From positions 1,504,001 to 1,568,000 of the forward strand of contig CBDCFN010000016.1 in assembly GCA_965216315.1 (NCBI GenBank): DNA of 64,000 nt. Direction: 5' to 3'. Made by a program: the position numbers and the translations under genes. The notes beneath the pieces were generated by a model. That model did no database searches, was not told where the DNA came from, and saw only the letters and a list, made by a program, of their open reading frames with translations. The stretch is from a bacterium. GTDB taxonomy: Bacteria > UBA10199 > 2-02-FULL-50-16 > JAJFLM01. Shown one piece after another: positions 34,300 to 54,633 of the stretch (the first letter of the stretch is position 1; the number at the start of each line of letters is the position of its first letter).

Positions 34300-35961
34300 A
34301 TGTCCACGGTCATGGGAACAACACCGTTTATGTCAGCCAGCTTGCTTGCAAGTAGCCGTTTTCCTCAAATCACCTCACAACTTGATCATATTCAGCACCG
34401 CCAGTTGGGCGACAGCTTCTTAGGGCAGCTCAGCGACGCCGATATTTTTATCGCTGACATTTCCTGTTTGCGAAATGATCAGTGGCTGCATCGCATGGAC
34501 ATGGCCGGGTCTCTCAGCACGATCGAGAGGATCCTTGGCGAATTTAAAGGAACGACCTCTCATTCTCACCTTGCGGTTGTTCGTGAAAACGAGGTCCCCT
34601 CACCGGTCGCCCAACGCATTGTCACTGCGCGACCCGCATTGAAATCAAGCAACCGCGAATTCCACATCGAGGGCTATTTTCAACCTTTCGCGACGCAGAC
34701 GCTCGATGCCAATCGGCTGCAACCCGTAAAGGGGCTCACTCGCGACTCGAAGCTGTCATTCTATCCCCCTCCCTATGTGCCTCTCAATACACAGGACGAA
34801 TACAAGATTCTGCAAATGCTCGAGTACGCCGGCATCCACTACGAAACTCCGCGTTGCGATGCCGCTCGTTACGGTGTCACTGCATTTGATGCGGGACGTC
34901 GCTTTGTCTTCAAGACAAACCTAGACTTCATTACCTTCGACTGGGATCACACGCTCAGCAATTACCAGATCTTTGAAGAAATTGCCCCCATCATTCGCGC
35001 CAAGCTTTCCAAGCAAGAGCCACCGGAGGCCTTGGCTGAACGCCCCATGACCGCCCTCGAAGTGGCGCGCCCTTTTATGCAGGAATTGGTATTGGGCATG
35101 ATGGTCGGTTATGCTTTTAGGCAAGGACTAACTAATTTCCAGCAATGGGAGCAATACAAGCCACAAGTCGGTATTGTCACTCATACTTGGCCTGACCGTT
35201 TGGGCGTGCTCGCTGAACACTTCGTCCGTTTGTTACCGCTGATGGAGGGATTACTACCCGGAACACCTGGCGTCTATAACTGGATGACACATTCCGATGT
35301 CCGTTCGATCACCCACCTGCATCACTTCTTAAGTTACGCCGAAAGTCTGCTCCGCAAATTCGAACATGTCGGCCTGGAAGGACTGACAGAAACCGAACAA
35401 GCGGAATTGATGGGCTACATGGAAGACGGCAAGGCCCATTATCGAAAACCCTTGGGGACCTTGGCCATGCGCGGTTGGGAATTTTCCAGTCTGCTTCATT
35501 TTGACGACTCAACCAAGGTCATCAATGACTTAGTCGAACACGTACACGCCGAAGCCATCCGCGGCCTTTGGGTGCGCCAACCGCATTCAAAAAAACTTGA
35601 TGTCGGTGAGCTCAATAAAATCGTGCTCTCCTCACTCTGGCGTTCACGAGAGGCGGCACGCCTACGCGCCGCACGCAACCTGATTCGCGCCGAAGAACAG
35701 GGGTTCACCCTGCCGTATGTGCTCAGTGCCATGCAGATGTTCAGCGTCACGCGCCAAACCGACCAGTTGGCCTATCGCGCGCCCCTGCCCGCCGGTACGG
35801 TTTTCCGGCTCCATGAAACCCCGACCACCGTCGGTGAGTACTGGCGTTACTATGTGAACCCCACCAATCGCCTCAAGCAGCAGGTGCGCGCCGTGCGCAA
35901 AGCGGCCGGCGGTCTGCGCGCACTGCGGCATCAATATAAAGAAATCCGAAAAAAACCCTAA
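34300..35961 (+). CDS. Hypothetical protein with HAD-like motifs and Ser/Thr-rich leader
   Basis: FITFDWDHTL (DxDxT motif I), GIVTHT (possible motif II), LLHFDDS (motif IV-like); leader MSTVMGTTPFMSASLLASS. Confidence 0.6.
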   Translation: MSTVMGTTPFMSASLLASSRFPQITSQLDHIQHRQLGDSFLGQLSDADIFIADISCLRNDQWLHRMDMAGSLSTIERILGEFKGTTSHSHLAVVRENEVPSPVAQRIVTARPALKSSNREFHIEGYFQPFATQTLDANRLQPVKGLTRDSKLSFYPPPYVPLNTQDEYKILQMLEYAGIHYETPRCDAARYGVTAFDAGRRFVFKTNLDFITFDWDHTLSNYQIFEEIAPIIRAKLSKQEPPEALAERPMTALEVARPFMQELVLGMMVGYAFRQGLTNFQQWEQYKPQVGIVTHTWPDRLGVLAEHFVRLLPLMEGLLPGTPGVYNWMTHSDVRSITHLHHFLSYAESLLRKFEHVGLEGLTETEQAELMGYMEDGKAHYRKPLGTLAMRGWEFSSLLHFDDSTKVINDLVEHVHAEAIRGLWVRQPHSKKLDVGELNKIVLSSLWRSREAARLRAARNLIRAEEQGFTLPYVLSAMQMFSVTRQTDQLAYRAPLPAGTVFRLHETPTTVGEYWRYYVNPTNRLKQQVRAVRKAAGGLRALRHQYKEIRKKP

Positions 35962-36019
35962 AAAACAGGTTTTTCGGCCCCATTTTTAACTTATCGCAAG
36001 AGAATTCCTCAGTTTTTAC

Positions 36020-36046
36020 GCAACATTAGCCCATTCAGCGCGAGAA
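36020..36046 (+). promoter_or_regulatory. Sigma28-like promoter, copy 2 (weaker -10)
   Basis: GCAACATT-N11-CGCGAGAA, upstream of 36099. Confidence 0.5.
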
Positions 36047-36098
36047 TGCCCTTAAGTGGAGTCATATGACTCCGTAGTGGTGTAACTGAGGGAGATTT

Positions 36099-36923
36099 AT
36101 GGCATTTTTAGCGGCATCGACGATGACCAGTCAGTTGGGGCTCACCTCCGTCTTGGCGAGTTCAAATCTGACCAACAGCGCGCTTCCGGTCGCCGTTACG
36201 ACCGCCGCAGCCACCACAGTGGCGCCTGCCATTGCTTCAGCGCAACCCTTTACACCGCCACCGGATCCCGCACAGCGACCGAGTGCTGAAGACACGCCTC
36301 CGATCGATGAAATTTTTGGCGATGCCGCGAATAACGGTCTGGGCGACATTCCCGTAACAGAACTCAATAACCCGGATCAGACCTGGCCGATTCTTATCGC
36401 GGCGGCAAGCTTTAGCGTCCCGTTAACACGGCTCGCTCTCGGCGTCTTCCGCCCCCTCCTCCCCAAGTCCTGGAAGACCGCCGATCAATCACTGGCCGCT
36501 GAAGGAGCCCTGCACAGCGCCAATCATTTTGTCAGCCGTGTCGCTAATTCGACGGTCGGCAGCATCGCGGCGCATGCGCGCAACCTCGGAGCGGCCATCT
36601 ACGTGGGCCACTCGCTTTCACATGATGCGCTTCGTCTCTTCCCCGAACAATACTGGCCGGAACTTTTGATCGTCTTCGGGATCGGAACGAGCCTGATCAC
36701 CCGCTTTAGTGCCTGGCGCCGGGCGCGCAAACTCAAGAAGGCGGGCGTGCCGGCCGAAGAAATCGCCGCCATGCGACAGCATGCCCTCGGTTTCATGCCG
36801 AAACGCATGCCAAAACCCAAGCAACTGCAAGCATCAAGTAATACCGTCACGGAAACAGCGACGGATATCGAAGCAGCAACAGTTACAACAACAGATACGG
36901 AGCCACCTGAAGGAACAGCCTGA
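36099..36923 (+). CDS. Hypothetical membrane protein with Ser/Thr-rich leader
   Basis: GGGAGA SD; leader MAFLAASTMTSQLGLTSVLASS; Pro-rich linker; hydrophobic segments. Confidence 0.65.
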   Translation: MAFLAASTMTSQLGLTSVLASSNLTNSALPVAVTTAAATTVAPAIASAQPFTPPPDPAQRPSAEDTPPIDEIFGDAANNGLGDIPVTELNNPDQTWPILIAAASFSVPLTRLALGVFRPLLPKSWKTADQSLAAEGALHSANHFVSRVANSTVGSIAAHARNLGAAIYVGHSLSHDALRLFPEQYWPELLIVFGIGTSLITRFSAWRRARKLKKAGVPAEEIAAMRQHALGFMPKRMPKPKQLQASSNTVTETATDIEAATVTTTDTEPPEGTA

Positions 36924-39550
36924 TGACACTGCCACTCGGGACGACGACAAACACACTGCTCACGTCTAACTTTCTCGGGCTTGCGGCCTCCGCACCGCTC
37001 TTAAACAATTCATTAACGGGTAACGCGCCGACCACTGACAATCAAACTCTGCTGGATGACAGCAGTGCTTATCAGGACCCCACCACATCCAGTCCGCTGA
37101 CCGAGACCTCACTGACTGCGGCCGCAGCGGTTTTCGGGCCCGAACCGCCCATCGCCGAAGTGAATCCGACAGCCACGATTGAAGAAGACCTTGAAAGCGC
37201 CGCCCGCACCAATCCGAGAGGATCATTGGCGTTATTGGCTGCCTTAGCGACCGTCACGACCCTCGCGGTTCCCGGCACGGCCTTTGCCCAAGACGGGGTC
37301 ATGGAAGCCTCCGGAACCAGTACCTACGACCCGACAACGCATCTGATCGTCTTGGCCGCCCTTTTTTCAATTCCCATCTTACGAGGAACCGTTCAGGTCG
37401 CACGTCAGGTATATCAATGGTTTAAAGAAACTTTCGGGGAAGCTCCGGTCTCTGCGCGTGCGCCCAAAACCGGTCCTCCGGCTGCGGAAGAAACCACCCC
37501 CGCCGAACCCTCTGAACAACCTGATTATCTCTATCCGCAGCCATTTGAAGCGATCAATCAGGTGACGGGCAAGGCCGAACGCGTTTTTTCTACCGTAAGA
37601 GATGCATCCATACCGCTAATGATTCAAAAAGACCTCTATTTTCCCCTCATCGGCGGTGCCTCGTTTTTCTTAACCGGCGGCTTTGATCGACCCTTGTGGG
37701 CCTTGGCCATCGATGCTTCAGCGATGGGACTGGCCTACCTCAATCGCTGGTATCAACTTCGCAAAGTTGACCGGCCGCTCATCGAAGCCGTCAAAGAAAA
37801 ACCTTTGACCTCGGATGCCTTCAAAAAACATTTGGAACGTCCACTCGGCGTCCTCGGACCACCCGTGCCGACGGTCGAAGAGTTTCATGAAGACGAATTT
37901 TTTCGCCTCAATAAGCGACTTTTTGATGGAGAACCGACACGCAGTCGTTTGAGAAGCTATTTCGCGCTTAAAGACATCCTCCAAGCCGCTTTTTTACTCG
38001 TAACTCAAATCAATGATCGAACCGGCTCGGCAACGCTCTTAAAAGAAATGTGGCGTTACGCGCTGAACTCGGAAATTTTACCGGCCGATGAAGATAATTT
38101 AGAGGCCGCACATGCCATTGCCCGCCAATGGGCCATCCAAAGTTCCGCCCGCATGCGCGCTAACCTCTCGTTTGATGGCATCGAACAGCTGACAACGATC
38201 CCCGAAGGCGCCCCCGTCATCATGATCGGAAATCACGATTCTTCAATGTGGCCTTCTTTTTGGGCGGCCTTTTTAATGCGACTCAGTGACGGACGTGACA
38301 TTCACGGTCGACCGATTGCAGACATCAGCAATTTTGCATTGGCACCCTGGATGCGTTTGAGTCCCTTATCAGTGCTCGGTATCGCCCTCCAGAAACTCGG
38401 CCTCATCTACGTCCCGCGCAAATCAAAACCCAAAAAGCGCAAACTATGGAAACGTATTCTAATTAATTGGAACCCGCTTCTTCTCCCGCTTAGGGGCCTC
38501 TACCACGGCGGGGTTTGGGCGCTCACCAGACTAGGGCTCCTTGAGAAGGCGCACTTCGATTGGCCTAAGGATCTCGTCGACAAGGCAAAGATGGGTATCT
38601 ATCCCTTAGGGTATCCGGCCGGCGGCCGTGAACCCGCCTGCTATAATGAAGCGGGCGAAGTGATTCAATCAAGCCCGCTGGCCAACGTCCTCAGCACCAA
38701 GAACCCCCATTATTTCATCGCCCGCGGTATTGCCGAGCAAGCCGTCGAAATTGCGAGCCAAAACGGCGGTCAAACCGTCTATGCTCCGTATATCTACACG
38801 AACGGCGCCTATCGCGTCGCCCACAAGCAGAAGAAAGGCTTTGGCGCCTTTGTTGAACCGATTACAACCGATCAGGACGTGAATTATAGCGTTCAAGGCA
38901 TTGATCAAGTTCAACCTAACGAATCGGCAGATGCCGTATCAACGCGTTGGGAGAAACTGTCTATCGAGGCGACGGGTACAGAACAGGTCCTGCAAGAACA
39001 GGTTCTCGACTGGCTCCAACGATATCGGCGCGACGATGCCCGCCGTCTGCATGATGTGTTTATCGCGCAGGCAAGCGGGCAAATGGCCGCACGTGACGCC
39101 TCCGTCGAAGCTGCCAAAGGCAACTATCCCATCCATTATCTCATTGCCGCACGCATTACCGCTATTCGACCGGGTCTTCCGAATAACGATCGTCGCGTCT
39201 TTCAAGATCGTTTCTTCGACCTGCTAAATAACCAAGTAGACCACAGCAAAATGCAGGAAATGATCGAACAACTGAATCATGCTAACTTGGAGCATCTCCT
39301 GATTACGCTCAATGACGAAGTCCTGCAAAATCATTTAGCTTACAGGGAAAGAATGCGCTTGCGCCGCTGGCTGGGTGAGATGAATAATCAAGATTCTCGA
39401 GAGGCCTTGTTGGCGGATGAATCACGTGCGACATTGCGTGAGATGATGAATTCATTCAACGCGCAAGCCTGTCACCGTTTTGCGTTACTGACGCTCTTGA
39501 GGGATATCTCGATTCGGGTCAAACAGGTTGAATATAAGGCCGCGGCGTAA
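36923..39550 (+). CDS. Large membrane protein with divergent lysophospholipid acyltransferase-like domain
   Basis: TGATG coupling to the upstream gene; GIEQL..IP...PVIMIGNHDS, LGLIYVPR and YPAGGR resemble PlsC blocks I-III, but the HxxxxD Asp is replaced by Trp. Confidence 0.55.
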   Translation: MTLPLGTTTNTLLTSNFLGLAASAPLLNNSLTGNAPTTDNQTLLDDSSAYQDPTTSSPLTETSLTAAAAVFGPEPPIAEVNPTATIEEDLESAARTNPRGSLALLAALATVTTLAVPGTAFAQDGVMEASGTSTYDPTTHLIVLAALFSIPILRGTVQVARQVYQWFKETFGEAPVSARAPKTGPPAAEETTPAEPSEQPDYLYPQPFEAINQVTGKAERVFSTVRDASIPLMIQKDLYFPLIGGASFFLTGGFDRPLWALAIDASAMGLAYLNRWYQLRKVDRPLIEAVKEKPLTSDAFKKHLERPLGVLGPPVPTVEEFHEDEFFRLNKRLFDGEPTRSRLRSYFALKDILQAAFLLVTQINDRTGSATLLKEMWRYALNSEILPADEDNLEAAHAIARQWAIQSSARMRANLSFDGIEQLTTIPEGAPVIMIGNHDSSMWPSFWAAFLMRLSDGRDIHGRPIADISNFALAPWMRLSPLSVLGIALQKLGLIYVPRKSKPKKRKLWKRILINWNPLLLPLRGLYHGGVWALTRLGLLEKAHFDWPKDLVDKAKMGIYPLGYPAGGREPACYNEAGEVIQSSPLANVLSTKNPHYFIARGIAEQAVEIASQNGGQTVYAPYIYTNGAYRVAHKQKKGFGAFVEPITTDQDVNYSVQGIDQVQPNESADAVSTRWEKLSIEATGTEQVLQEQVLDWLQRYRRDDARRLHDVFIAQASGQMAARDASVEAAKGNYPIHYLIAARITAIRPGLPNNDRRVFQDRFFDLLNNQVDHSKMQEMIEQLNHANLEHLLITLNDEVLQNHLAYRERMRLRRWLGEMNNQDSREALLADESRATLREMMNSFNAQACHRFALLTLLRDISIRVKQVEYKAAA

Positions 39551-39590: not shown

Positions 39591-39617
39591 GCAACTTTAT
39601 TCAGGGACTGCCGATGC
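39591..39617 (+). promoter_or_regulatory. Sigma28-like promoter, copy 3
   Basis: GCAACTTT-N11-GCCGATGC, ending 11 nt before the ATG at 39629. Confidence 0.75.
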
Positions 39618-39628
39618 TGCAGTGAATT

Positions 39629-41317
39629 ATGACCCTACTCGCCCTCAATCCAGCTCTGGCAACATCGCTGCTGGCCGCCGCAGCATCCGGTCCCGGACCG
39701 ACTGGCACTCAGCAACTCTCGCAGCATATCTTTCGCTTAGCCGCCCACCCGAACATTCGCGAGGTCCCGGCTGAGGCCCTGACCCAGATCCGCACTGGAG
39801 TACAAAGTGATGATAATTTAACGCTTAAGTACGTAGACCAACTGCAATCAAGTGCTGATCCCAGTGCAATCGCCCAGGCCTTGATTGAAATCGGGTCGCG
39901 GCAAAGCGCTGTCGGCAGGCTCGCAACAGCAAATCCTCCCGACTTATCGCAATTAGACATCCCGGAACGTCAACTTGAAACCGATTCGGAAATAACCCTG
40001 CAGGCTTGGCTTAGCAGTCTAACGGGGGGCCAAATCTCTGAGGAAGCCCTGACCCTGGGACAGCGCTGGGGGCGCTATGGTTACTTCCTCAGCGGGGCCG
40101 CCCATATGCTGGGCATACCCGCAGCGCTCATGACTGCAGCCACGGCACTGATTATGGGTGATCCCGTCGTCGGTGGTATTTCCGCCGGATTTCTTACGAC
40201 TTATCTAGCCAACTTTCTACAACGCTACCGACGTAGCAATATCATGCTGCAATCAACGGAACAGGGCCCCTTTACCCCCCGGCAAATCGAAGCGTATCTT
40301 AAAAGTTATCAATTATACCCCGGTGCGCTTCGTGAGCTCAGAGAGGCGTCCGCTCATCGCGATCAGGAATTGTTTGACGTCATCGCAGCCATTGAAGCCT
40401 CGGCAGGACCGAGGGGGCTTCAACCGACACTCAGTTCTAGAGCGTTTCTACAAGGGCTGTACAATTTTCTTAACATTTCGACGATTGGAAATCTAGGGCT
40501 CGCCCGCGATGCAAACGGTGATTACTACGATTTAGCCGCGCAGGCCATTGGACTTGGAGTCATGCAACGCTTGCAGTGGCAGCCGCTCGTCCTACACGGA
40601 GAACGCTTACAAGAACTCAAGGAATTGCAACGCAATAATCCGCGAGCTCGATTTGTTTTCGTCCCCAATCACCGCAGTCACTTGGATACCCTAGTGACGG
40701 TCTCACTCGTCCGAGATTTTCGCGCTCGTTTCGTCGCGAAAGACGCTCTGGGCAAGGCACCGGGGCTCGGCTGGTCACTTTTCCCGGAACCCTGGCATCC
40801 CTTGAAAAACAGCCTCATTCGAGGTCCAGGCAGCATGTTGATCCATCGCGGTGGAGAGGCCTCTCATCGGCATCTGACGGCGTTTGTCGGCGAAAAATTT
40901 GCGGCCCATGAATCCGTGGTCATCTTTCCGGAACAAACACGCCTTGATACGACGGACCGAAATGTCGAATTAGGCATGCGCCCTTATAGAGAAGGCATTT
41001 TTCACGCCGCCCATCATTGGACGAATATTGCCGACGAGACTTATGACATCTATTTTGTCCCGCTATCTTATTATGGAGTCGGTCGAATTTTTCCAAAAAG
41101 TAATGATAAGGCAAGTAGTGAAGGCGGTCTCATGAATCAACCCGTCGCCATGTCAATCGGCACGCCAATTCAAGCCCCCAAAAGAATCAATTCCTCCGGA
41201 GAAAGCGATAGAGACTACATCCACGCATTAAACCGGACAGTCTGGTGGCAACATTGGCAACAGCTTGCGGCACTCCAGTCCTTTATGAACCGCTACAGCC
41301 CCGCGATTTCAAGATAG
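39629..41317 (+). CDS. PlsC-family (LPLAT) acyltransferase with long N-terminal extension
   Basis: FVPNHRSHLD, FVAKDAL, IHRG, VIFPEQTR; leader MTLLALNPALATSLLAAAAS. Confidence 0.8.
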   Translation: MTLLALNPALATSLLAAAASGPGPTGTQQLSQHIFRLAAHPNIREVPAEALTQIRTGVQSDDNLTLKYVDQLQSSADPSAIAQALIEIGSRQSAVGRLATANPPDLSQLDIPERQLETDSEITLQAWLSSLTGGQISEEALTLGQRWGRYGYFLSGAAHMLGIPAALMTAATALIMGDPVVGGISAGFLTTYLANFLQRYRRSNIMLQSTEQGPFTPRQIEAYLKSYQLYPGALRELREASAHRDQELFDVIAAIEASAGPRGLQPTLSSRAFLQGLYNFLNISTIGNLGLARDANGDYYDLAAQAIGLGVMQRLQWQPLVLHGERLQELKELQRNNPRARFVFVPNHRSHLDTLVTVSLVRDFRARFVAKDALGKAPGLGWSLFPEPWHPLKNSLIRGPGSMLIHRGGEASHRHLTAFVGEKFAAHESVVIFPEQTRLDTTDRNVELGMRPYREGIFHAAHHWTNIADETYDIYFVPLSYYGVGRIFPKSNDKASSEGGLMNQPVAMSIGTPIQAPKRINSSGESDRDYIHALNRTVWWQHWQQLAALQSFMNRYSPAISR

Positions 41318-41334: not shown

Positions 41335-43215
41335 CTAGGTCAACCCGGTATCGGCCTGACGTCCCGCTATTTTTTCCATCTCACGAATGATGGCTGAATT
41401 TAGCTGAAGAATATCGTAATTGGAACGATCGGGGAAATCCTCTGCTCTTATTAATGACTCCGGTGGCAAATAACCGGCAAGTGCCACAAAGCCATCTTCT
41501 TCACCAATTCGAGCCAGATGAAAATTATTATCAGAACTAAAGAAACCACCCAATGAACGAGGAATATCCTGAACGGGGACACCCCCACGGTGGAGGTTGT
41601 TGGCAAAGATATGGATGCCGGAATTAATATTCATGGCCAGCTTGGCATGCATTCCGGTCATGTCACGCGACGGGATATAGGCACCCGGCATATGAAGGGC
41701 ACCAGGATGATTGAGATCCATATAAGGTCCGACCAAGGGATACTCAATCGCCCGCGTTCCAGTCCCAAACATGGCCAACATCATCCCCTCTTTGACACGG
41801 GCCTCCATGGCCTCATAAACTTCGTTCATGATTCTTTCTCGCTCTTCGTCGTTCGCATCCTTAGGCGGACGCTTCAGATAAACGCCTCTCATGTGTAAAT
41901 ACCCTGCCATCGCCGGAATCGCCTTAAACGCCTCTTCTGCGAGAATTGAAGCCGGATTCATCCCCAACAGATAGAGACCACCGATAAGTCCGGCATAATC
42001 CATAGCACCGGTATGCGACCAATGAGAAATGCTTCCCTGACGAACGGTATTCTCCCCTTGAATAAAAGTAGAAAGTCCATCCATAAGTCCCGCCTCAATG
42101 GGACGATGATGTCCAAACAGAGGCGCATTCGCTCGATGCACGATGCGAAACGATCCATACTGCCAACTAAGCAGGTTAAGAGCGAATTGAGTTGCGGCAG
42201 CATAATCAAGGTCTTCCATCGGAAGTTTTCCTGCTTTGGCTTTTTTCACTAAGTCCCGGACGTTCCATACGATCTCTAGAAAGGGTTCCAATGCGGTCAT
42301 CCCATTAGGACCCTGATCAATGAGCTTGGCCTGCGTCTTGATATGAAATGTCAGGGGCGCCCCGAGGGCTTCAATGCCATTATGCCCTATCTTGCGATAA
42401 ATTTTCTGCACGGTCTGATGGAGATCCCGCAGGGCCACTAAGGCCTTTTCTTCCGTTTTCTTGCGCCGATTTTCGCGACAGCCGGGATCATCTTGGCTCA
42501 TGCGCCGATCATATTCGATATACTCCGACATGCTCGTTTCATAAGTACGAAGCGCTGCCTCAAACTTTTTTATCTGTCCCTTTGACGGCGATCGCGTCCC
42601 CTCCTCGGCAACCGCCATGAGATCGCGATAACCGGCAAGTTGCCAGCGAAGTTCCACTTCCTCCGCTTGAACGAGTAATTCCTTTTCTCGTTTCCAGCGA
42701 TCCCAAGCCCTATCCCCAATCCGCAAATTGCGTTCATGGAGATTGGCATCCTGGTAATTCCCCTCCCAGTCCTCAAGCATCTCGCGCCAAAGATCACGAC
42801 TGGCATCATTGATAGCAATCAACTCCTGCTTGGCGGCTTCATACGCTTGACGCCCTTTTGACGAGTGAAGTTCCATACGATTCCTCACCTGATCAGCTGC
42901 CCATGCCAGGCGATCCGAATGAAAGCTGGCATGAGATGAACGAAGAGCCTCCTCTTGGCCGGGAGATGGAAGCTGTTGATAATTAAACCGACTTGAAATG
43001 CGCTCTCGATCAAGAACATACAAAGACGTGCCCCGAGCTTCTACGAATGGCGTAATCCCCGCCAAGAAGCGCCGCGCAATATACCCCCCCATGCTATTGG
43101 AATTCTGACCTGCCCAGGTCTGGGCTTGAGGTGACATGGCGGTCAAGGGACCCGCACTCGAAGCCAAGAGTGCGGAACTTCCCATTGAAATTGTTGAAAA
43201 CGCTGAAAGTGTCAT
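41335..43215 (-). CDS. Divergent acyltransferase-like protein with helical N-terminal extension
   Basis: WSHTGAMD (HxxxxD), ILAEEAFKAIP, GVYLKR, LAMFGTGTR; leader MTLSAFSTISMGSSALLASS. Confidence 0.6.
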   Translation of the reverse strand: MTLSAFSTISMGSSALLASSAGPLTAMSPQAQTWAGQNSNSMGGYIARRFLAGITPFVEARGTSLYVLDRERISSRFNYQQLPSPGQEEALRSSHASFHSDRLAWAADQVRNRMELHSSKGRQAYEAAKQELIAINDASRDLWREMLEDWEGNYQDANLHERNLRIGDRAWDRWKREKELLVQAEEVELRWQLAGYRDLMAVAEEGTRSPSKGQIKKFEAALRTYETSMSEYIEYDRRMSQDDPGCRENRRKKTEEKALVALRDLHQTVQKIYRKIGHNGIEALGAPLTFHIKTQAKLIDQGPNGMTALEPFLEIVWNVRDLVKKAKAGKLPMEDLDYAAATQFALNLLSWQYGSFRIVHRANAPLFGHHRPIEAGLMDGLSTFIQGENTVRQGSISHWSHTGAMDYAGLIGGLYLLGMNPASILAEEAFKAIPAMAGYLHMRGVYLKRPPKDANDEERERIMNEVYEAMEARVKEGMMLAMFGTGTRAIEYPLVGPYMDLNHPGALHMPGAYIPSRDMTGMHAKLAMNINSGIHIFANNLHRGGVPVQDIPRSLGGFFSSDNNFHLARIGEEDGFVALAGYLPPESLIRAEDFPDRSNYDILQLNSAIIREMEKIAGRQADTGLT

Positions 43216-43300: not shown

Positions 43301-43327
43301 TCTTCGGCCCTAGCGGGCTAAAGTTGT
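43301..43327 (-). promoter_or_regulatory. Sigma28-like promoter, copy 4
   Basis: On minus strand ACAACTTT-N11-GCCGAAGA, 85 nt upstream of the ATG at 43215. Confidence 0.7.
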
Positions 43328-43390: not shown

Positions 43391-44629
43391 ATGTATATTC
43401 AAGCCGAGTGGATTATCCCGATCAGCGCCCCACCCATCCAGAATGGCTGGATCCGGGTCGAAAATGGCCTCATTATGGATATCGGGGAGGAATCTTCCCG
43501 CCCAACAACGCTCGATGAGCCCCTACAGAACCTGGGAGCGGTCGCCGTATTTCCCGGCCTCATCAATGCCCATTGTCACCTTGAATTTGGCCGCCAGGAC
43601 CATCCACGCGATTCTTTTGCCGCCTGGGCCCAGTCCGTTCAGCAGAGTCAGCAGCGAGATTCATTTGAGGAAATGACGGAACGTTGGAACCAGAACGTCA
43701 GGCGCTTGATCGCAACGGGGACGACGACGGTGGCAAATCATTGTAATCGAATGCCTGACATTGGACGGGTCCTGTCCTCTCGAAAAACTTTTGACCCGCG
43801 GCACGGCGGCCGCTCTCAAAAGTCTTCCTCGGGCCACCCGTCACAACTACCGCACATGATCCACATTTGCGAAATCGTCGGGAGTGATCCGACACGCGCG
43901 GCGGAATCTTATCGCAATACCTGCGCTCAACAACTCGAAATACTCAATGAGCAAGGCCAGGCCACAATATCTCCCACGAGTCTCTATGCGGTCGCGCCGC
44001 AAGTTCTCGAAGACTTCTTCAAAAATCGCGACCCTGATTCGTTAGTCTCCGTTCATCTCAAGGAGAGTCACGAGGAAAACGATCTATTCAAAGACAAGCG
44101 GGGCGCCCTCGCCCAGCTGGTGAAAGTCAAAGGCGGCGATCTTTGGCTGACAGACCCTATGACTTGGCTCCGGGAAAAAAATCGCCTTGGTCCCAGTACC
44201 TTGATTATACACGGTAATTACCTCAGCGATTCTGACGTCGGCACCTTGCAAGGGACCGGGGCCAGTGTTATACACTGCCCCGGCAGCCATGCTTATTTCG
44301 GGCATCAGCGCTTTCCCTTGGAGGCGCTTCAAAATAAGAACATCAATATTGCGCTCGGAACCGACAGTCTGGCCAGCAATGATGATCTGAGCATGCTTAA
44401 CGAATTGCGCCGCGTCCGGGATCAGTACTCTGGGCTCTCATTAGAAGAAATTGTTCGCATGGCAACGATCAATGGGGCTGAGGCACTCGGTATCGCTGAT
44501 GAGCGCGGGAGTATTGAAACGGGAAAAAGTGCCGACTTGATCGCAGTCCCGTGCTCGGTGGAAGATCCGTATGAAGCGCTCTTTAACGCGGAGACAACGA
44601 CGCTGACAATGATTGCAGGAACAGCATGA
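43391..44629 (+). CDS. Amidohydrolase, probable aminodeoxyfutalosine deaminase
   Basis: PGLINAHCHLE, VHLKES..E, IIHGN, HCPGS, LGTDSLASN, GSIETGKSADL; first gene of a menaquinone operon. Confidence 0.8.
   Translation: MYIQAEWIIPISAPPIQNGWIRVENGLIMDIGEESSRPTTLDEPLQNLGAVAVFPGLINAHCHLEFGRQDHPRDSFAAWAQSVQQSQQRDSFEEMTERWNQNVRRLIATGTTTVANHCNRMPDIGRVLSSRKTFDPRHGGRSQKSSSGHPSQLPHMIHICEIVGSDPTRAAESYRNTCAQQLEILNEQGQATISPTSLYAVAPQVLEDFFKNRDPDSLVSVHLKESHEENDLFKDKRGALAQLVKVKGGDLWLTDPMTWLREKNRLGPSTLIIHGNYLSDSDVGTLQGTGASVIHCPGSHAYFGHQRFPLEALQNKNINIALGTDSLASNDDLSMLNELRRVRDQYSGLSLEEIVRMATINGAEALGIADERGSIETGKSADLIAVPCSVEDPYEALFNAETTTLTMIAGTA
43764..43842. repeat. Long imperfect palindrome in frame inside amidohydrolase
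   Basis: Nested pairs GACGGGT/ACCCGTC, ACTTTTGA/TCAAAAGT and GCGGC/GCCGC; encodes GRVLSSRKTFDPRHGGRSQKSSSGHPS. Confidence 0.8.
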
Positions 44630-45312
44630 TGAGTGAAGATATTCAAAAAATGTTCAGCTCGATTGCCCCGCGTTATGACCGACTGAATCACGTCTTGTCA
44701 TTTCAAATCGATCGGCTCTGGCGCAAAGAGGCCATCGCCGAACTCAATCATTGCCACAATGTCCTCGACCTGTGTGCAGGAACATTGGACCTTTCCATCA
44801 TGCTCGCCAAGCAATCGCCTAAAGTTCATATCGATGCCGTCGATTTCTCGGCCGAAATGTTGCGCCACGGGGAACTAAAACTAGATGACACTATGCGTAC
44901 CCGCATTCGCACCTATTGTGCGGATATCCAAAAACTCCCGTTCAAAGACGACACGTACGATGGTGCGATGGTTGCCTACGGCATGCGCAATGTCGACGAC
45001 AACCAGCGCGCCTTGACCGAAATCCTTCGTGTTATCAAACCCGGCGGCAAACTTGTCGTTCTGGAATTTTTCAAACCCAATCGACTCGCGGCGCGAATCT
45101 TTCACGCGACGTATGGCCGCTTTGTCATTCCCTGCCTCGGCGGTCTTATCAGCGGCAACCGTCAGGCCTATCGCTACCTGCGTGATTCCATTCGCGGCTT
45201 TCACACGACCGAAGAGTACGAATCCTTGATGCAGCGCTGTGGGTTTCGTGAGGTTACCTTTCGCCATCAGTGGGGGGGAGCCAGCACCCTGTTTATGGGG
45301 AAAAAACCATGA
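44626..45312 (+). CDS. menG: Demethylmenaquinone methyltransferase (UbiE/MenG)
   Basis: MFSSIAPRYDRLNHVLS..IDRLWR, VLDLCAGT.D, YGMRNV, KPGGKLVVLEF, AYRYL.DSI. Confidence 0.92.
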   Translation: MMSEDIQKMFSSIAPRYDRLNHVLSFQIDRLWRKEAIAELNHCHNVLDLCAGTLDLSIMLAKQSPKVHIDAVDFSAEMLRHGELKLDDTMRTRIRTYCADIQKLPFKDDTYDGAMVAYGMRNVDDNQRALTEILRVIKPGGKLVVLEFFKPNRLAARIFHATYGRFVIPCLGGLISGNRQAYRYLRDSIRGFHTTEEYESLMQRCGFREVTFRHQWGGASTLFMGKKP

Positions 45313-45866
45313 AGTTTGTCATCGCTGTTACCGGGGCCAGCGGCGCCCTCTACGCCATTCGCCTCCTCAATTTTTTAAGCACGACGCCCCATCATATCGA
45401 GCTGGCCGTCAGTCCCAACGCCGTTGAAATCGCCAAAGACGAATGCAATTTTGATTACTATCAGACAGATCTGCCCATTTATGGCCCTAAGGATTTTAAC
45501 GCCGCCTTTGCCAGCGGCTCGGCACATTTTGATGCGATGGCGATTGTCCCATGCAGCATGGGGACACTTGGGCGCATTGCGCACGGGTATTCCGAATCTC
45601 TCGTGACACGTGCCGCCGATGTCTTTCTTAAAGAAAAGCGACCGTTGATACTCGTGCCCAGAGAAACCCCCCTCAATCTGGTTCACATCGAGAACATGAG
45701 ACTCTTGGCGCAAGCAGGCGCGACAATCATCCCGGCGATCCCCTCTTTTTATTCAAAACCGGGCACGATTGAGGAGGCCGTTGATACCGTTGTCGCACGC
45801 ATACTCGACCAAATGGGCGTTGAAAATGAATTGAGACCACGCTATGGCAATCACCCGGAAGATTAA
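45309..45866 (+). CDS. ubiX: Flavin prenyltransferase
   Basis: AVTGASGA.Y, ASGS, PCSMGTLGRIA.G, RAADV.LKEKRPLILVPRETP, P.FY.KP. Confidence 0.95.
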   Translation: MKFVIAVTGASGALYAIRLLNFLSTTPHHIELAVSPNAVEIAKDECNFDYYQTDLPIYGPKDFNAAFASGSAHFDAMAIVPCSMGTLGRIAHGYSESLVTRAADVFLKEKRPLILVPRETPLNLVHIENMRLLAQAGATIIPAIPSFYSKPGTIEEAVDTVVARILDQMGVENELRPRYGNHPED

Positions 45867-46704
45867 ACAGACCTTTGAACTCATCCGCTTCTCTCACACG
45901 ATCTTCGCCCTTCCCTTCGCGTTGGCCAGTATGCTTGTAGCGGCCCAAGGACTTCCCTCTCTCCGTACCATTGGATTGATTCTGGCTTGCATGGTCTGTG
46001 CTCGAACTTCAGCGATGGCCTTCAATCGTTTTATCGATGCGGACATCGATGCGCGCAATCCACGCACTCAAAACCGTCACATTCCAAGTGGCCTCTTATC
46101 AAAGGCCTATGTATTGAGTCTCGCGATTGCCAGCGGAGCGACCTTCATCTTAGCAGCGTACTTCCTTAACTTTCTGGCGGCCATCCTGTCACCCTTGGCG
46201 CTCGCGATCATCTGGCTTTATTCGTTCACTAAACGCTGGACCTATTACACCCAACTTTTCCTCGGGTTATCCTTGGCGATCTCACCGATTGGGGCATGGA
46301 TTGCGGTCACCGGTCAGTTTGCCTGGCCACCCGTGCTATTGGGTGGGGCTGTCGCCTTTTGGGTCGCCGGCTTCGATATCTATTATGCCACCCAAGATCA
46401 TGATTTTGATCAAATGAATCACATCAAATCACTAGTCGTTAAGTTAGGCATTCCGGGGGCGTTACGCCTTGCCCGAATATTCCATGTCCTCACGGTTGGC
46501 TTACTCCTGGGTTTTTCATTCTATGTGCCGGCCCCAACGATCTATCTCTTGACCTGTACCGTCGTCGCCGGGCTCCTGATTTATGAACACAATCTGGTGA
46601 AGGCCGATGATCTGTCGCGAATTGATGCGGCTTTTTTTACGCTCAATGGATGGATTGGGATGCTTTTCTTGGTGGGAACCGCCACGTCCGTGTGGATGGC
46701 CTAG
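45844..46704 (+). CDS. UbiA-family polyprenyltransferase (futalosine-pathway MqnP-like)
   Basis: LIRFSHTIFALPFA, ARTSAMAFNR..DADIDARNPRT.NRHIP.G, YS.TKR, GFDI.YA.QD..FD, AFFTLNG. Confidence 0.9.
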   Translation: MAITRKIKQTFELIRFSHTIFALPFALASMLVAAQGLPSLRTIGLILACMVCARTSAMAFNRFIDADIDARNPRTQNRHIPSGLLSKAYVLSLAIASGATFILAAYFLNFLAAILSPLALAIIWLYSFTKRWTYYTQLFLGLSLAISPIGAWIAVTGQFAWPPVLLGGAVAFWVAGFDIYYATQDHDFDQMNHIKSLVVKLGIPGALRLARIFHVLTVGLLLGFSFYVPAPTIYLLTCTVVAGLLIYEHNLVKADDLSRIDAAFFTLNGWIGMLFLVGTATSVWMA

Positions 46705-47967: not shown

Positions 47968-47968
47968 C

Positions 47969-49848: not shown

Positions 49849-49864
49849 ATGAGAGGATGATATA

Positions 49865-49881: not shown

Positions 49882-49940
49882 CTCGCACGTGGACGAGAGA
49901 ACGTTTATTCAGCTAAAGAATGAATGGGAGTAAGAATCGA

Positions 49941-49976: not shown

Positions 49977-49985
49977 GCCATCCCC

Positions 49986-50516: not shown

Positions 50517-50624
50517 GGGCCTCCTTTGCGACGCGTGACGGAATCTCGATAACAGATGGAGCGCTCAGAACACAACCATAATTCGCTTTCTATTTCGGCA
50601 AAGTCCGCTAAGATACTCTATAGC

Positions 50625-51296
50625 ATGAAAACCGGCTGTAAAATCATTATCGGTGTCGTGGTCGCTCTAGCGATACTTGTCAGCTGCCTGTGGCTGATAC
50701 GAGACAATTTCATTTCATCTTATCTTGAAGAAACCGTCGCATCAAAACTCAATGTTGTCCTAAAAATCGATCGATTTAAGAGTCAGCCGTTCAAGGGACT
50801 GAGTCAGTGGCGTATTGAGGCAAGCGGTACGGTCGAAGGCGCAACCTTTACCGGCAATGCCCAGCTCTCTCTCTTCCCCCTCGAAGTGATTAAACACCAG
50901 CTCAATGTGACACGTTTTCCCCTTACGGATCTCAATACCGTTACGCGTAAATATTGGGGCTTTGAATTTGCACGCGGCTGGACGGATATTCATTCATGGG
51001 GAGCCATCCACCGAGAGCGTATTGAGGTGCGTGCCAAGCTTCATCTACAGGAATTCGAACTCGCCGGCGATAACATCCCCTCGGAACTTGCTGGCGATGA
51101 AAATCTGCTCAATATGCTGGTTCACGTCACCGGTCTCCCCTTGGAAATTGCCATTGAAGGAAATCCACACAACCCGAAAATCAGCTGGAAACGAGCACTC
51201 CCTGCAGGTCTTAATATGATGAAAGGTTTTTTTGGACCGCTTTTTGAGAAATTTCAACTCCCCACTAAGAACAAGCCACCTTCGGAATCACCATAA
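50625..51296 (+). CDS. Membrane-anchored AsmA/DUF748-like protein
   Basis: N-terminal TM anchor; beta-rich body; C-terminal LPLEIAIEGNP.NPKISW pattern. Confidence 0.55.
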   Translation: MKTGCKIIIGVVVALAILVSCLWLIRDNFISSYLEETVASKLNVVLKIDRFKSQPFKGLSQWRIEASGTVEGATFTGNAQLSLFPLEVIKHQLNVTRFPLTDLNTVTRKYWGFEFARGWTDIHSWGAIHRERIEVRAKLHLQEFELAGDNIPSELAGDENLLNMLVHVTGLPLEIAIEGNPHNPKISWKRALPAGLNMMKGFFGPLFEKFQLPTKNKPPSESP

Positions 51297-51693
51297 AGGT
51301 CCCGGCTCCCGTAGCCACGAGACGATCCTCAGCCGTCCATACGCTCATTTTAGCCGTCGTCAAATTCTTGCCCATGCGAACAATCTCACCACGTGACCAA
51401 AGAGCTTCGCCGCTCACATGTTCCAGTAGTCGTACTTCAAATTCAACCGTCGCAATCCAAGTGGCGTAATATGGTGCAACCGTAAACCAGCCGGCATTGT
51501 CCAAGAGCGTCGCAAACACGCCGCCATGCACGCCATTCATCGCGTGATCAAAACCGGCATGATAAGGCATATGAAAGACCGCCCGGTCTTGATCGTCATA
51601 AGACAGCGTCATTCCCATGCTTTTGGCGATCGGAGCGGTGCTAAAGAGCTTCACCAGCTCTTGCTGTCGCGTTTTGGATGACTCCGTGGCCAT
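51265..51693 (-). CDS. PaaI-family (hot-dog) thioesterase
   Basis: NGVHGGVFATLLDNAG, ATVEFEVRLL, G.IVRMGK, LVATGAGTF; likely start MATESS at 51693. Confidence 0.9.
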   Translation of the reverse strand: MATESSKTRQQELVKLFSTAPIAKSMGMTLSYDDQDRAVFHMPYHAGFDHAMNGVHGGVFATLLDNAGWFTVAPYYATWIATVEFEVRLLEHVSGEALWSRGEIVRMGKNLTTAKMSVWTAEDRLVATGAGTFMVIPKVACS

Positions 51694-51951
51694 AACCAGG
51701 CAATAGGAGATCATGAGACAGACCGCAACCTTAAAGACGGACACTATCTTACAATAGGGATCACTATCAGTATCGGGGTTGCACGCTATTTTAACCCTAA
51801 ATGGAGCGAACAATTACGCACGGACATCCTCGCCGCCTTGGAAGAGGCCACGGCCCGTGCTGACGCGGCTCTGTACGAGGCCAAAAAGAATGGCCGTAAT
51901 CGAGTCGTTATCGCGGCAGCTCCTGCGCCCGATACCCCAAAAACCGAGTAA
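51682..51951 (+). pseudogene. C-terminal remnant of a GGDEF diguanylate cyclase
   Basis: Translates to ...ITISIGVA...ARADAALYEAKKNGRNRVV...*; in-frame TGA at 51679, no ATG/GTG/TTG before the ITISIG motif, GGDEF motif absent. Confidence 0.8.
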
Positions 51952-52109
51952 TTTCCAGCCTCAGCAACCAAGCTATGACCGTACGGCTTGTATACAATTG
52001 AATGGGACACTTTCCGAATAAAGCGAAAAATCGTTGTCATTTGTGCCCGGAGACGCTAAATTCTCCCGCTCTGAGGCGTATTGATAAGATTAATTTTAAG
52101 GAGATTTTT

Positions 52110-52574
52110 ATGAAACTTCGAATCACGACTTTAAGTATTGTAGCTTCTTTTGCACTAGCCACAGCCGCCTATGCGGGTTTTGGAAGTAGCATTGGTAAAT
52201 CTGTCGGCGGAACCGGTGGTAAAATCGGCGGTGCCGCGGGTAAGGCTGTCGACTCTGCCGCTTCTTCAGCTCTGATCAGTGACCTCAATAAAAAGATTGC
52301 TGCCGAGGGATGTCGTTTCAAGGATGCAACCACGGATTTTGAAACAACGTGCAGCTTGTCTAAAGTCAACAGCATTATCAGCAAACATCGTAGTGCTATT
52401 GAAAACGTCTTCGGCAAACGCGTTTACATCACGGTTCATGCCAATGGGAATACCAATAGTCTGGCGAGTGCCCGTGCCCGTAACGTGAGAAATTCATTGA
52501 ATGTCAATTGGTGGAGAGTGAATACACGGCATTCAAAAGGTGGCGATGGTCTGACGATTACAGCCCACAAATAA
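52110..52574 (+). CDS. Small secreted protein, possible degenerate OmpA-C-like fold
   Basis: AAGGAG SD; signal ending AYA; Gly-rich segment; ITVHA....NSLASARARNVR resembles the OmpA LS..RA..V motif. Confidence 0.6.
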   Translation: MKLRITTLSIVASFALATAAYAGFGSSIGKSVGGTGGKIGGAAGKAVDSAASSALISDLNKKIAAEGCRFKDATTDFETTCSLSKVNSIISKHRSAIENVFGKRVYITVHANGNTNSLASARARNVRNSLNVNWWRVNTRHSKGGDGLTITAHK

Positions 52575-52591
52575 GCTGAAATACCATTTAC

Positions 52592-52630
52592 AAAAAAAGG
52601 CGGCCTGCATCACGTGGGCCGCCTTTTTTT
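52592..52630. terminator. Bidirectional rho-independent terminator
   Basis: AAAAAAAGGCGGCC-loop-GGCCGCCTTTTTTT between convergent genes. Confidence 0.9.
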
Positions 52631-53225
52631 ATGCCTGCTCCTGGACCCTGATTTCTTTGGCCTTACGGCGCCGCATAAAGACAAAGACCGTCATCGCAAT
52701 CGCAATAGCGCCTGCAATGGCAACGGCCCATAAGCCACGTTGCGCCAAACGACGCAGCTTGGCATCAAAGTTATGGGCAATCGACATGACGACATTACTG
52801 CCTTGCTGGCCTTCGACGTAGAACGCCGTCAATACATAGGGACCCGGCGCGTCGACCGTAAAATCAAAAACCGAGACACCGGCATGCGAACCGGCGGCAA
52901 ACTCCGACAGATTGGAAGCATCATTGAGTAAAAGATAATTGCCGTTTTCTTTCGATTGGAGCTCGCAGAGGAGGCCCGAAAGCACAGGTCCCGTCGCATA
53001 ACGCCGCCCGCCGACCTCACTTTCATACTCATAGAACATCGTATAATATCCCGGCTGGTCGAGATTGACGACAAAGGATCCGGGAAGCACAACACGTTCC
53101 ATATTGGCGGCGAGCTTGGAAATACCGCCATGCAAAGACCAGGCAAAATAGGCAATGCCCGCCCCCAATACGAGAACGGCCAACAGATAATAGCGTCGAC
53201 CCGGTTTAAGGCGGTGATACTCCAT
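52629..53225 (-). CDS. Hypothetical membrane protein (two TM helices flanking a beta domain)
   Basis: AGGAG SD before ATG at 53225 (MEYHRLKPG). Confidence 0.75.
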   Translation of the reverse strand: MEYHRLKPGRRYYLLAVLVLGAGIAYFAWSLHGGISKLAANMERVVLPGSFVVNLDQPGYYTMFYEYESEVGGRRYATGPVLSGLLCELQSKENGNYLLLNDASNLSEFAAGSHAGVSVFDFTVDAPGPYVLTAFYVEGQQGSNVVMSIAHNFDAKLRRLAQRGLWAVAIAGAIAIAMTVFVFMRRRKAKEIRVQEQA

Positions 53226-53265
53226 CTCCTTTAAAATACTACGTTTTTCAGCGAAAAGCGAGTCC

Positions 53266-53292
53266 GCAACCTTCCCTGCACTCAACCGAAAA
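53266..53292 (+). promoter_or_regulatory. Sigma28-like promoter, copy 5
   Basis: GCAACCTT-N11-ACCGAAAA, ending 9 nt before the ATG at 53302. Confidence 0.65.
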
Positions 53293-53301
53293 GCCCCTAA
53301 C

Positions 53302-54633
53302 ATGCTCTCAATCGCCTCCACGACCACCATGAGTCTCCATGCGGTGCCTTTATTGGCCGCCAATAATTTCGTCGCGACTCAGCCGGAACTAAGCGCTCAG
53401 CTGCAGTTGGTCACCGAACAGGGACTCCGGACTCAACTGCTCTCTACTTTAAGAGATCGTGGCGTGGCCGTTGAAAACTATACGGACTTGAGTAAGGCAT
53501 CCGTGCTTGAAGATAGGGACATCAGTGATCGCCTCCGTTTTGCGTTGCGAACCACACTCGATGATCCCCAGCCCGCTTTCCGGACAAAGCAACTCGTCGC
53601 TCTTCCCGATATTCTTACAATCCCGTGGCCCTCGAAGGTCCGTCGGCACTTTAAAGAAAGTACGGGACAGTCACGCTGGCTGCTCAAGCCCGAGGGCTTT
53701 GACATGCGCCGCGAATTAAGGCGCTTCGCACGCGACCAACACAAAGGGCGCATTCGCTATCCGCAAAGTGCCCGTGAACATGCCAGTTGGGTCGCAGCGA
53801 TTCGACGTCAACAACATTTAGGCCGGACCATTGCGTGGCACAAGCCGCGTCACGGAGTTCAAGAGATTCTTAACTTCCTTAATATTCGCATTCAGCCACG
53901 CGGGAAAATTCCGGAATCAATCAATCCGGACCTGCTCGGTTTTCAACGGCTCGGAACGGCCAATCCCTTGCCCGGCGATCTCATGACTTACTCGATTGCT
54001 TTTTTCACGAGCGCAGCCATTGTAACGCAGAGTACCTGGGACGCTACCGCCGCCGAAGTGATGGTCCTCGGGGGCCGTTCAACGTTTTTAACCCGCCCCG
54101 AAAACGTCGGAACGCGACCCGAATATTGGCGCTTTATCCCGGAACGAAAGCCGGAGCTACTCGTCACTTCGGGCTCACGCCTGGATCAAGTGGACTTTAA
54201 GGCGCCGACTCATGAAAACGTGTTAAAGCCTTTGGCGTCACAGCTGCGATTCAAGGCCAAGGCTTTCACGGTGCTCGAAAGTCATGCGGGTCCGGCGCTG
54301 GGAATGGATGCTTGGCAGGTCCTCTATGAATTGGCCAATTCAGACTCCGCAATTCTGACCTTTCAGCTCCTCGGTCGCGGTCAACAACGCCGTTTGGCCG
54401 TCGCCATTCGCTATTTCCAAGCAATTCACAGTGACCGCTTCCACTTCCTGAGCTCCGCCGAGCGCGCCCTACGTGACTTAGCGCGATCCTACGAATTAAG
54501 GCGGCTGGATATCTACTATCCTTTGTGCACTCGTGACAGCATGAGACGCGCGCTCAAACGCAGGCGTTATAGCCCCCTGCGCTCCCCATTTCACGGCAAA
54601 ATCCTCGGAAAGCGAATTATTCTGACCAGTTGA
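53302..54633 (+). CDS. Orphan Arg-rich hypothetical protein with Ser/Thr-rich leader
   Basis: 443-aa ORF; leader MLSIASTTTMSLHAVPLLAANN; no recognised domain. Confidence 0.65.
   Translation: MLSIASTTTMSLHAVPLLAANNFVATQPELSAQLQLVTEQGLRTQLLSTLRDRGVAVENYTDLSKASVLEDRDISDRLRFALRTTLDDPQPAFRTKQLVALPDILTIPWPSKVRRHFKESTGQSRWLLKPEGFDMRRELRRFARDQHKGRIRYPQSAREHASWVAAIRRQQHLGRTIAWHKPRHGVQEILNFLNIRIQPRGKIPESINPDLLGFQRLGTANPLPGDLMTYSIAFFTSAAIVTQSTWDATAAEVMVLGGRSTFLTRPENVGTRPEYWRFIPERKPELLVTSGSRLDQVDFKAPTHENVLKPLASQLRFKAKAFTVLESHAGPALGMDAWQVLYELANSDSAILTFQLLGRGQQRRLAVAIRYFQAIHSDRFHFLSSAERALRDLARSYELRRLDIYYPLCTRDSMRRALKRRRYSPLRSPFHGKILGKRIILTS

Follow-up and report, generated by a model that had tools for sequence, protein, structure and literature searches.

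Classical type III secretion (T3S) signals are without a consensus, and for this reason it is hard to find the effectors of type III secretion systems (T3SSs). A Ser/Thr-rich, acid-depleted N-terminus is a known flavour of T3SS and flagellar export substrates, and the class-3, late export substrates of the flagellum are driven by the flagellar sigma-28 (FliA). The class IB chaperone-binding sequence is a short stretch near the N-terminus of many unrelated effectors and can be found by pattern. A conserved chaperone-binding sequence recognized by class IB T3SS chaperones is the subject of PMC3280449, and passages of PMC9251005 describe chlamydial housekeeping enzymes (the phosphoglucomutase CT295 and glycogen enzymes) that have gained T3S signals, a subject also of the preprint 10.1101/2020.10.11.335026. 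The T3SS* of Myxococcus xanthus is needle-less according to the review passages of PMC12428579, in which no T3SS* substrates are named. Here we describe a leader peptide found on six proteins encoded in a 64,000-nucleotide stretch of a bacterial genome (the window, G000:C16:1504001-1568000; the G000 assembly is 2.96 Mb and 98% complete). The leader defines a genome-wide, co-regulated family, and we give even chances to the reading that it tags a large set of effectors for export by the T3SS, the genes of this set being transcribed by a T3SS-linked FliA-like sigma factor.

The six N-termini on which the sequence-only reading of this stretch was built are real: each coincides with the start of an open reading frame (ORF), at window positions 34300(+), 36099(+), 36923(+), 39629(+), 43215(-) and 53302(+), residues 1-19 are free of charged residues (K/R/D/E) in all six, and a first charge is met no earlier than position 20 and no later than about position 56. 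That reading had placed an LLASS-type motif in every one of them; [LV]LA[SA][SAN] is present in five, and 36923 has GLAAS. The six proteins are as follows.

34300..35961 (+): leader protein 1, 553 amino acids (aa); leader at residues 1-19, ending LLASS; 22.5 bits (iterated profile, see below)
36099..36923 (+): leader protein 2, 274 aa; leader ending VLASS; 15.0 bits; no family; charged residues set in at about position 56
36923..39550 (+): leader protein 3, 875 aa; leader ending GLAAS; 14.9 bits
39629..41317 (+): leader protein 4, 562 aa; leader ending LLAAAAS; PlsC-type acyltransferase domain
41335..43215 (-): leader protein 5, 626 aa; leader ending LLASS; 15.3 bits
53302..54633 (+): leader protein 6, 443 aa; highest leader score, 24.6 bits

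The rest of the genome was scanned for the same leader, with ORFs called by a crude longest-ORF rule. A strict regular expression applied to all candidate starts matched 24 ORFs, including one false match inside SctV, and recovered five of the six window leaders. A profile built from 23 seeds, which were chosen by coordinate, found, at 6.0 bits or more, 25 non-seed genes among 9,041 N-terminal start candidates and 12 matches among 31,980 internal-start controls, a control set 3.5-fold larger than the candidate set. One iteration of the profile brought the counts to 44 genes against 3 controls with a threshold of 8 bits and to 56 against 7 with one of 6 bits, so that the further genome-wide members looked for by the sequence-only reading do exist; the non-iterated counts are the fairer test, because the iterated model was trained on 34 of its matches. 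Across the alignment of 33 leaders the L and A of the core never vary, [LVI]LA[SA][SA] being common to 33/33, and in 51 of 52 members the last residue of the motif falls at position 11-24, in keeping with T3S signals, which occupy the first 15-25 residues. Within residues 2-25, leaders contain 28.7% Ser plus Thr (13.6% in other proteins), 3.8% K/R/D/E (20.2%) and 1.9% D plus E (8.4%). By composition alone, residues 1-19 are free of charge in 152 of the 2,087 genes of at least 150 aa. Genome-wide, the place at which charge first occurs has a bimodal distribution, with its second mode at 25-30. This composition set, together with the profile matches and minus hydrophobic N-termini, makes up an extended set of 144 proteins.

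The codons of the L-L-A-S-S core differ synonymously among copies, which places the conservation in the peptide and not in the DNA. The varying codons rule out LLASS as a DNA palindrome or operator, and a mobile promoter-leader cassette was rejected because no pair among 56 cassettes has DNA-level similarity. Once the first 35 residues are removed, the 56 members fall into 51 BLAST clusters, in keeping with the claim that the bodies are unrelated, yet two of the window proteins, 39629 and weakly 41335(-), both match PF01553 (45.8 bits at residues 336-481 in the former, 17.9 bits and thus under the cut-off of 23 in the latter). A Pfam scan of 33 leader peptides alone gave no match, and the leader was not met in the literature surveyed for context, in which the motif itself was not searched for.

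Small residues at positions -3 and -1 are the rule for Sec cleavage sites. The core L-A-S-S has such residues and resembles a lipobox minus its cysteine, and the leaders could be read as atypical cleaved Sec (or lipoprotein-like) signal peptides with LLA[SA]S as the cleavage region. We regard this as very improbable. The leaders have no basic n-region, as the sequence-only reading held, with neither K nor R in the first 19 residues, and their maximal 11-residue hydropathy is low, at 0.80-2.07 (median 1.49) compared with a median of 2.66 for the genome's Sec/transmembrane (TM)-like N-termini. In 33/33 aligned leaders Ser or Ala stands after the motif, where a lipobox has its invariant Cys behind L-[AS]-[GA], and the cargo relies on cytoplasmic cofactors; needing ATP, NAD(P) or CoA, it cannot work in the periplasm. 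A Tat signal was also rejected, as the leaders lack Arg and the one member with an RR stretch has it only after the leader.

All six window genes lie in units with a sigma-28-like promoter, as had been claimed. GCAAC-N(14-17)-CGA sites precede 34300, 36099, 39629, 53302 and 43215(-), and 36923, which has no promoter site of its own, shares the unit of 36099, its start overlapping the stop of that gene (ATGA).

34266..34292 (+): sigma-28-like promoter (GCAAC..N..CCGAAGA), ending 7 nucleotides (nt) before ATG 34300, as expected for a leaderless mRNA
36020..36046 (+): sigma-28-like promoter, 52 nt upstream of 36099
39591..39617 (+): sigma-28-like promoter, ending 11 nt before ATG 39629
43301..43327 (-): sigma-28-like promoter, AAC-N16-CGA, about 88 nt upstream of ATG 43215; coordinates derived by hand
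53266..53292 (+): sigma-28-like promoter, ending 9 nt before ATG 53302

Genome-wide, GCAACTT-N-(C/G)CGA(T/A)A lies upstream of most leader members, and the pairing of a -10 element CCGA[TA]A with a -35 element GCAACTT at N14-17 spacing is enriched there. Promoters were counted with regular expressions, the main pattern being AAC-N-T-N12-15-[CG]CGA within 150 nt. The co-occurrence of leader and promoter proposed earlier was borne out: this pattern precedes 59 of 139 leader genes (at least 200 aa), while of the 1,670 remaining genes 64 have it, an odds ratio of 18.5 with p 8e-38, and two stricter patterns gave 5/43 versus 42/2,363 and 11/43 versus 71/2,363. In 11 leader members the -10 element ends 6-11 nt before the ATG, the geometry of a leaderless mRNA. 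Of 177 sigma-28-like sites in front of non-member genes, 48 end 5-14 nt before the start codon, and promoter-to-start distances across the genome, with examples at window 34292-34300, 39617-39629 and 53292-53302, imply that leaderless mRNAs are widespread. The only FliA/WhiG-like sigma factor of the genome is encoded in its T3SS cluster and scores 133 bits, under the curated cut-off of 189.6. The likeness to the flagellar sigma-28 system thus lies in the -10 element, which resembles GCCGATAA, and in a FliA/WhiG-like sigma factor encoded with the export apparatus; the differences are a -35 element that reads GCAACTTT, the score of the sigma factor and the lack of flagellum genes among those found.

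These start sites also bear on whether the leaders are an artefact of mis-called starts or of chance low-complexity N-termini. The public gene call for the 53302 protein (P0121) begins at the GTG codon of V15 (window 53302-53346), 14 residues downstream, which leaves the deposited protein without most of its leader, and the longest-ORF rule used here is crude. Against this, N-terminal candidates are enriched at least 7-fold over internal controls, the -10 element stands 6-11 nt from the ATG in the 11 members mentioned, the motif is conserved in other-genus orthologs while its flanks diverge, and the set is independently depleted in lysine (see below), so that an artefact is scarcely credible. 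The profile matches begin at the first start codon of their ORF in 32 of 44 cases, which together with the promoter spacing argues that the true starts do not lie downstream of the leaders; a Shine-Dalgarno-like word precedes 17 members. Public annotation may truncate other leaders in the same way as that of the 53302 protein.

To which machine might such a leader be addressed? The genome has one FHIPEP gene, whose product is SctV (806 bits, above its cut-off, and below the cut-off for FlhA), and its nearest named relatives are from Archangium (53% identity) and a Chlamydiae metagenome-assembled genome (49%), in a search that returned distant phyla. The T3SS cluster around sctV, at G000:C16:339083-372364, encodes two FHA proteins, an SctJ-like lipoprotein, SctL, SctN, a split SctQ, SctR/S/T, three LcrH/SycD-type chaperones and a FliK/SctP-like ruler, with SctU encoded outside it. 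Flagellum-like parts in the cluster are FliG-, FliM/FliN-, FliO-, FliJ- and FliK-like proteins and the FliA-like sigma factor. No flagellin, rod or hook genes were found in the 98%-complete genome, and the T3SS is non-flagellar. The proposal that co-regulated effectors leave by a flagellar or T3SS-like route therefore stands in part: the co-regulated family and a non-flagellar T3SS are both there, and a flagellar route is ruled out by the failure to find structural genes of a flagellum. Inside the cluster, after sctT, there is a gene with a sigma-28-like promoter for an HExxH protein whose N-terminus is uncharged. Searches of the genome for a type VI secretion system (T6SS) sheath, VirB4, a contractile-tail sheath, encapsulin (PF04454) and the bacterial microcompartment (BMC) shell (PF00936) found none of them, and the absence of the last two speaks against an encapsulin or microcompartment cargo peptide. 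We favour the T3SS because its export apparatus is present and the other machines for cytoplasmic cargo were searched for and not found. If the leader is a T3SS signal, the undescribed system suggested by the sequence-only reading is not needed.

Four large proteins (491, 460, 624 and 601 aa) encoded at G000:C16:362938-370038 adjoin the LcrH/SycD-type chaperones and match no family. As judged by eye from the translations, they seem to share a conserved C-terminal stretch and otherwise differ, and they may be translocator or filament subunits.

The mechanism that we propose is as follows. The leader would be an uncharged N-terminal export tag of 20-30 residues, rich in Ser, Thr, Ala and Leu, with a near-invariant L-A within [LVI]-L-A-[SA]-[SA]. 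The FliA-like sigma factor from the T3SS cluster would transcribe the tagged genes, often as leaderless mRNAs, in a parallel to flagellar class-3 logic. The disordered N-terminus would then enter the export gate, and the LLA[SA]S core, the conservation of which suggests a dedicated receptor or chaperone, could be its docking site on a partner specific to the family. The place of action of the tagged proteins would be beyond the bacterial cytoplasm, inside a host or prey cell. Like the class IB chaperone-binding sequence, the core is a short conserved N-terminal sequence on unrelated proteins; it differs in lying at residues ~11-24 and in being uncharged, and no CesT-type chaperone was identified here.

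Support for a destination outside the cell comes from the composition of the protein bodies. From residue 41 onward, the median K/(K+R) is 0.289 in 139 tagged proteins, compared with 0.474 in 1,032 cytoplasmic-type, 0.490 in 292 Sec-like and 0.450 in 346 membrane proteins without the tag, and the shift survives regression on G+C content (GC), GC at third codon positions (GC3) and other GC-sensitive residues. Tagged proteins without the promoter have a value of 0.295, untagged proteins with the promoter 0.401 and those with neither 0.473 (p 1e-21 for 0.295 versus 0.473): lysine depletion tracks the tag, not the promoter. It recurs in two relatives, at 0.32 versus 0.50 in G001 (p 0.053) and 0.30 versus 0.43 in G002 (p 0.018). 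Toxins that reach the eukaryotic cytosol favour arginine over lysine, a bias that passages of PMC7824611 ascribe to the avoidance of ubiquitination. The tagged proteins resemble them in their strong K-to-R shift, and differ in that the toxins of those passages take the endoplasmic-reticulum-associated degradation (ERAD) route (PMC7824611). Lysine-poor, arginine-rich bodies and eukaryote-style enzymes together point to the eukaryotic cytosol, where the loss of lysine limits ubiquitination, and we infer that ubiquitin avoidance caused the depletion here.

The cargo was assessed with a Pfam scan of 80 tagged proteins (6 + 34 + 40), 25 of which have a domain above cut-off and 55 none. Lipid metabolism is represented by large enzymes. 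A single-chain acetyl-CoA carboxylase (ACC) of 2,588 aa, with an ACC_central region and a C-terminal biotin-protein ligase fusion (G000:C16:1632121-1639887 (-)), is flanked by an AMP-binding enzyme and a 1,991-aa orphan, all three being tagged or uncharged at the N-terminus, and a FAS/PKS-like (fatty-acid synthase/polyketide synthase) megasynthase of 3,856 aa combines MaoC, acyltransferase and short-chain dehydrogenase domains (G000:C15:370001-381571). Metabolic enzymes in the tagged set include an acyl-CoA synthetase, malic enzyme, GdhA, phosphofructokinase (PFK), a pyridoxal phosphate (PLP) enzyme and an aromatic amino-acid lyase; the signalling proteins comprise three Ser/Thr kinases, two histidine kinases of hybrid type, and GGDEF and RelA/SpoT proteins, and a helicase and LamG, HEAT and AAA proteins are tagged as well. 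Untagged paralogs of biotin carboxylase, BirA, malic enzyme and glutamate dehydrogenase (GDH) are present at 28-35% identity.

How the tag arose was examined in 41 genomes of the class (G000 and 40 relatives), in which family f1 consists of G000, G001 and G002. Across these genomes, real matches to the LLA[SA]S profile occur only in G000 (22) and G001 (3); those in other relatives were rejected, as they lay in tiny frames or frames with stops. In unbiased samples from f1, uncharged non-TM N-termini amount to 31/301 and 19/277 in G000, 5/80 in G001 and 5/137 in G002, whereas in G023, of another family, there are 4 in 235, one of them SctV itself. The single case in 101 from G003 (same order, other family) was discarded as a masked-base artefact. 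Orthologs in G001, which belongs to another genus, retain the core while the remaining leader has diverged. Outside f1, uncharged leaders with the same promoter type occur on few proteins, such as G031's ACC ortholog and, in G023, three proteins, one of which is encoded by a gene adjoining sctV.

The clearest case of gain is GdhA. Its orthologs in G003, G018 and G039 (55-64% identity) begin with an ordinary charged N-terminus, whereas in G000 and G001 about 30 uncharged residues stand ahead of the old Met. Among the 120 best GdhA homologs in a search of 5.8 billion proteins, the extension occurs only in the query and in a metagenome protein, P0003 (67% identity), and K/(K+R) in these two is 0.47 and 0.34, compared with a homolog median of 0.58. 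The tag was added to this housekeeping-type enzyme in family f1 only. That an ancestral Met follows the leader holds for GdhA and was rejected as a general rule (12/52 against 27% by chance, no enrichment). The passages of PMC9251005 offer a likeness, in that a metabolic enzyme has gained an N-terminal signal in some lineages and not in its orthologs elsewhere. The chlamydial signals differ from the present tag in varying by species and having no motif, whereas the core here is shared by dozens of proteins, and secretion was tested experimentally there (PMC9251005) and is predicted from sequence here.

Tentatively, and with some doubt, we suggest that family f1 may have made of a degenerate T3SS signal a recognizable tag on 2-7% of its proteome, and that a lysine-depleted, self-sufficient lipogenic kit (the ACC-biotin ligase, the 3,856-aa megasynthase, acyl-CoA synthetase, PlsC-type acyltransferases, malic enzyme, PFK and GdhA) may be injected to run a pathway in a eukaryotic host cell; alternatively, the tag may serve an undescribed protein-sorting route.

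Several observations weigh against an export tag of the T3SS, and two other explanations draw on them. Export through the T3SS, a receptor and a target cell are inferred, with sequence as the basis for export. The promoter also precedes Sec-type lipoprotein genes, and the regulon is therefore wider than the tag. Part of the cargo would make odd effectors, namely the two histidine kinases of hybrid type, the GGDEF protein and the 2,588- and 3,856-aa enzymes, and in one member (G000:C16:1318277-1319518) the leader runs straight into a Met and a twin-arginine-like stretch accompanied by a hydrophobic run, so that its tag looks placed ahead of a Tat-type signal. A genome-wide search for ketosynthase (PF00109) gave two weak matches only, so that type II fatty-acid synthase may be missing from the genome and the bacterium itself may depend on the tagged ACC and megasynthase within its own cell. 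The tagged proteins might then stay cytoplasmic, the leader being a cis-acting module (for instance a handle for phosphorylation or FHA binding, a tag for degradation or a peptide that docks on a scaffold) that co-ordinates a regulon of one life-cycle phase. Much of the cargo is indeed ordinary for the cytoplasm (the hybrid histidine kinases, GGDEF, RelA/SpoT, helicase, PFK, ACC and megasynthase), a possible absence of type II ketosynthase would make the tagged lipid enzymes indispensable there, several Ser/Thr kinases and FHA proteins are present alongside a tag rich in Ser and Thr, and the promoter drives non-tagged genes too. We nevertheless think a cytoplasmic module unlikely, as it leaves unexplained the strong tag-specific lysine depletion, the retention of untagged GDH, malic enzyme, biotin carboxylase and BirA paralogs, and the 55 of 80 tagged proteins without a Pfam domain.

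The remaining difficulties concern the T3SS itself. Neither an SctC-type secretin above cut-off nor a needle gene was found in the genome, the single large secretin sits in a type II secretion system (T2SS) operon, and the ruler-like protein of the T3SS cluster begins with charged residues. With no secretin or needle recognized, this T3SS may resemble the needle-less T3SS* of Myxococcus, with which it also shares FHA proteins, Archangium being the nearest source of SctV (as judged against passages of PMC12428579); it differs in that an external structure is hinted at by its ruler-like protein and by chaperones of LcrH type. SctV is present in 41/41 sampled genomes of the class (above cut-off in 40), whereas the expansion of the tagged set is specific to family f1. 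The leader might accordingly be the address for a different, undescribed sorting route born in f1 (to vesicles, the surface or a subcellular site), to which the T3SS is unrelated. Such a route would fit the confinement of expansion and LLA[SA]S core to f1, the missing secretin and needle, and a conserved motif that implies a dedicated receptor; the consensus shared by 33/33 leaders is the respect in which the tag departs from classical T3S signals, and lysine depletion shows that the tagged set meets a different environment, not which one. On the other side stand the negative searches for T6SS sheath, VirB4, contractile sheath, encapsulin and BMC, the related uncharged leaders with the same promoter that occur at low number in other families, and the fact that the sigma factor fitting the promoter is encoded in the T3SS cluster. 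We judge a separate route unlikely and retain the T3SS export tag as the favoured explanation. A stand-alone 252-aa protein, encoded outside any secretion gene cluster at G000:C16:16617-17378 (-), has Secretin_N and partial Secretin domains, both just at cut-off.

Among the six window leader proteins, the acyltransferase 39629 is the sole body above a Pfam cut-off, and its ortholog in G001, of the same family, retains a leader ending LLASS; 36923 gave no PF01553 match, and for the four bodies other than 39629 and 41335(-) Pfam returned nothing and NCBIfam sub-threshold noise only. Leader protein 1 (34300) belongs to no known family. A DxDxT-like FDWDHTL stretch is a lead, and no more than that, to the haloacid dehalogenase (HAD) fold, the Protein Atlas gave weak leads only (0.85-0.88, to HAD-type phosphatases and DrrA P4M), and a structure model from a two-sequence alignment was unusable (mean pLDDT, the predicted local distance difference test, 31.4). 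The body of leader protein 3 (36923) is distant kin of another leader protein, C15:386378. The 53302 protein is an orphan with only two further homologs among 5.8 billion proteins, at 82-87% identity and with the leader kept, and sequence searches of the PDB with four of the window proteins gave 0 matches each. Among the neighbours, the first leader promoter begins 3 nt past the stop of a 768-aa ORF (window 31957-34263) that by eye is GAF-PtsP (enzyme I-Ntr)-like. At window 43391-46704, amidohydrolase-, UbiE methyltransferase-, UbiX- and UbiA prenyltransferase-like genes, also recognized by eye, stand in a row and might be menaquinone genes of the futalosine type; in G010 a syntenic amidohydrolase follows the acyltransferase ortholog.

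The lysine-poor tagged set, the tagged extra copies of metabolic enzymes and the GdhA tag restricted to one family are new in this analysis. As a mark that can be computed independently, tag-specific lysine depletion would single out proteins that function outside the cell producing them. In either case, whether or not the T3SS is the route, at least one of these leaders is cut short in public gene calls. If the link to the T3SS fails, the tag points to an undescribed sorting system. If the link is true, a simple profile is enough to list the candidate substrates of a basal T3SS that is kin to the systems of Myxococcus and Chlamydia, and the tagged set would provide a concrete candidate list and a testable signal where the passages of PMC12428579 name none for T3SS*. 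The chlamydial precedent of exported housekeeping enzymes would then extend to a whole lipogenic set.

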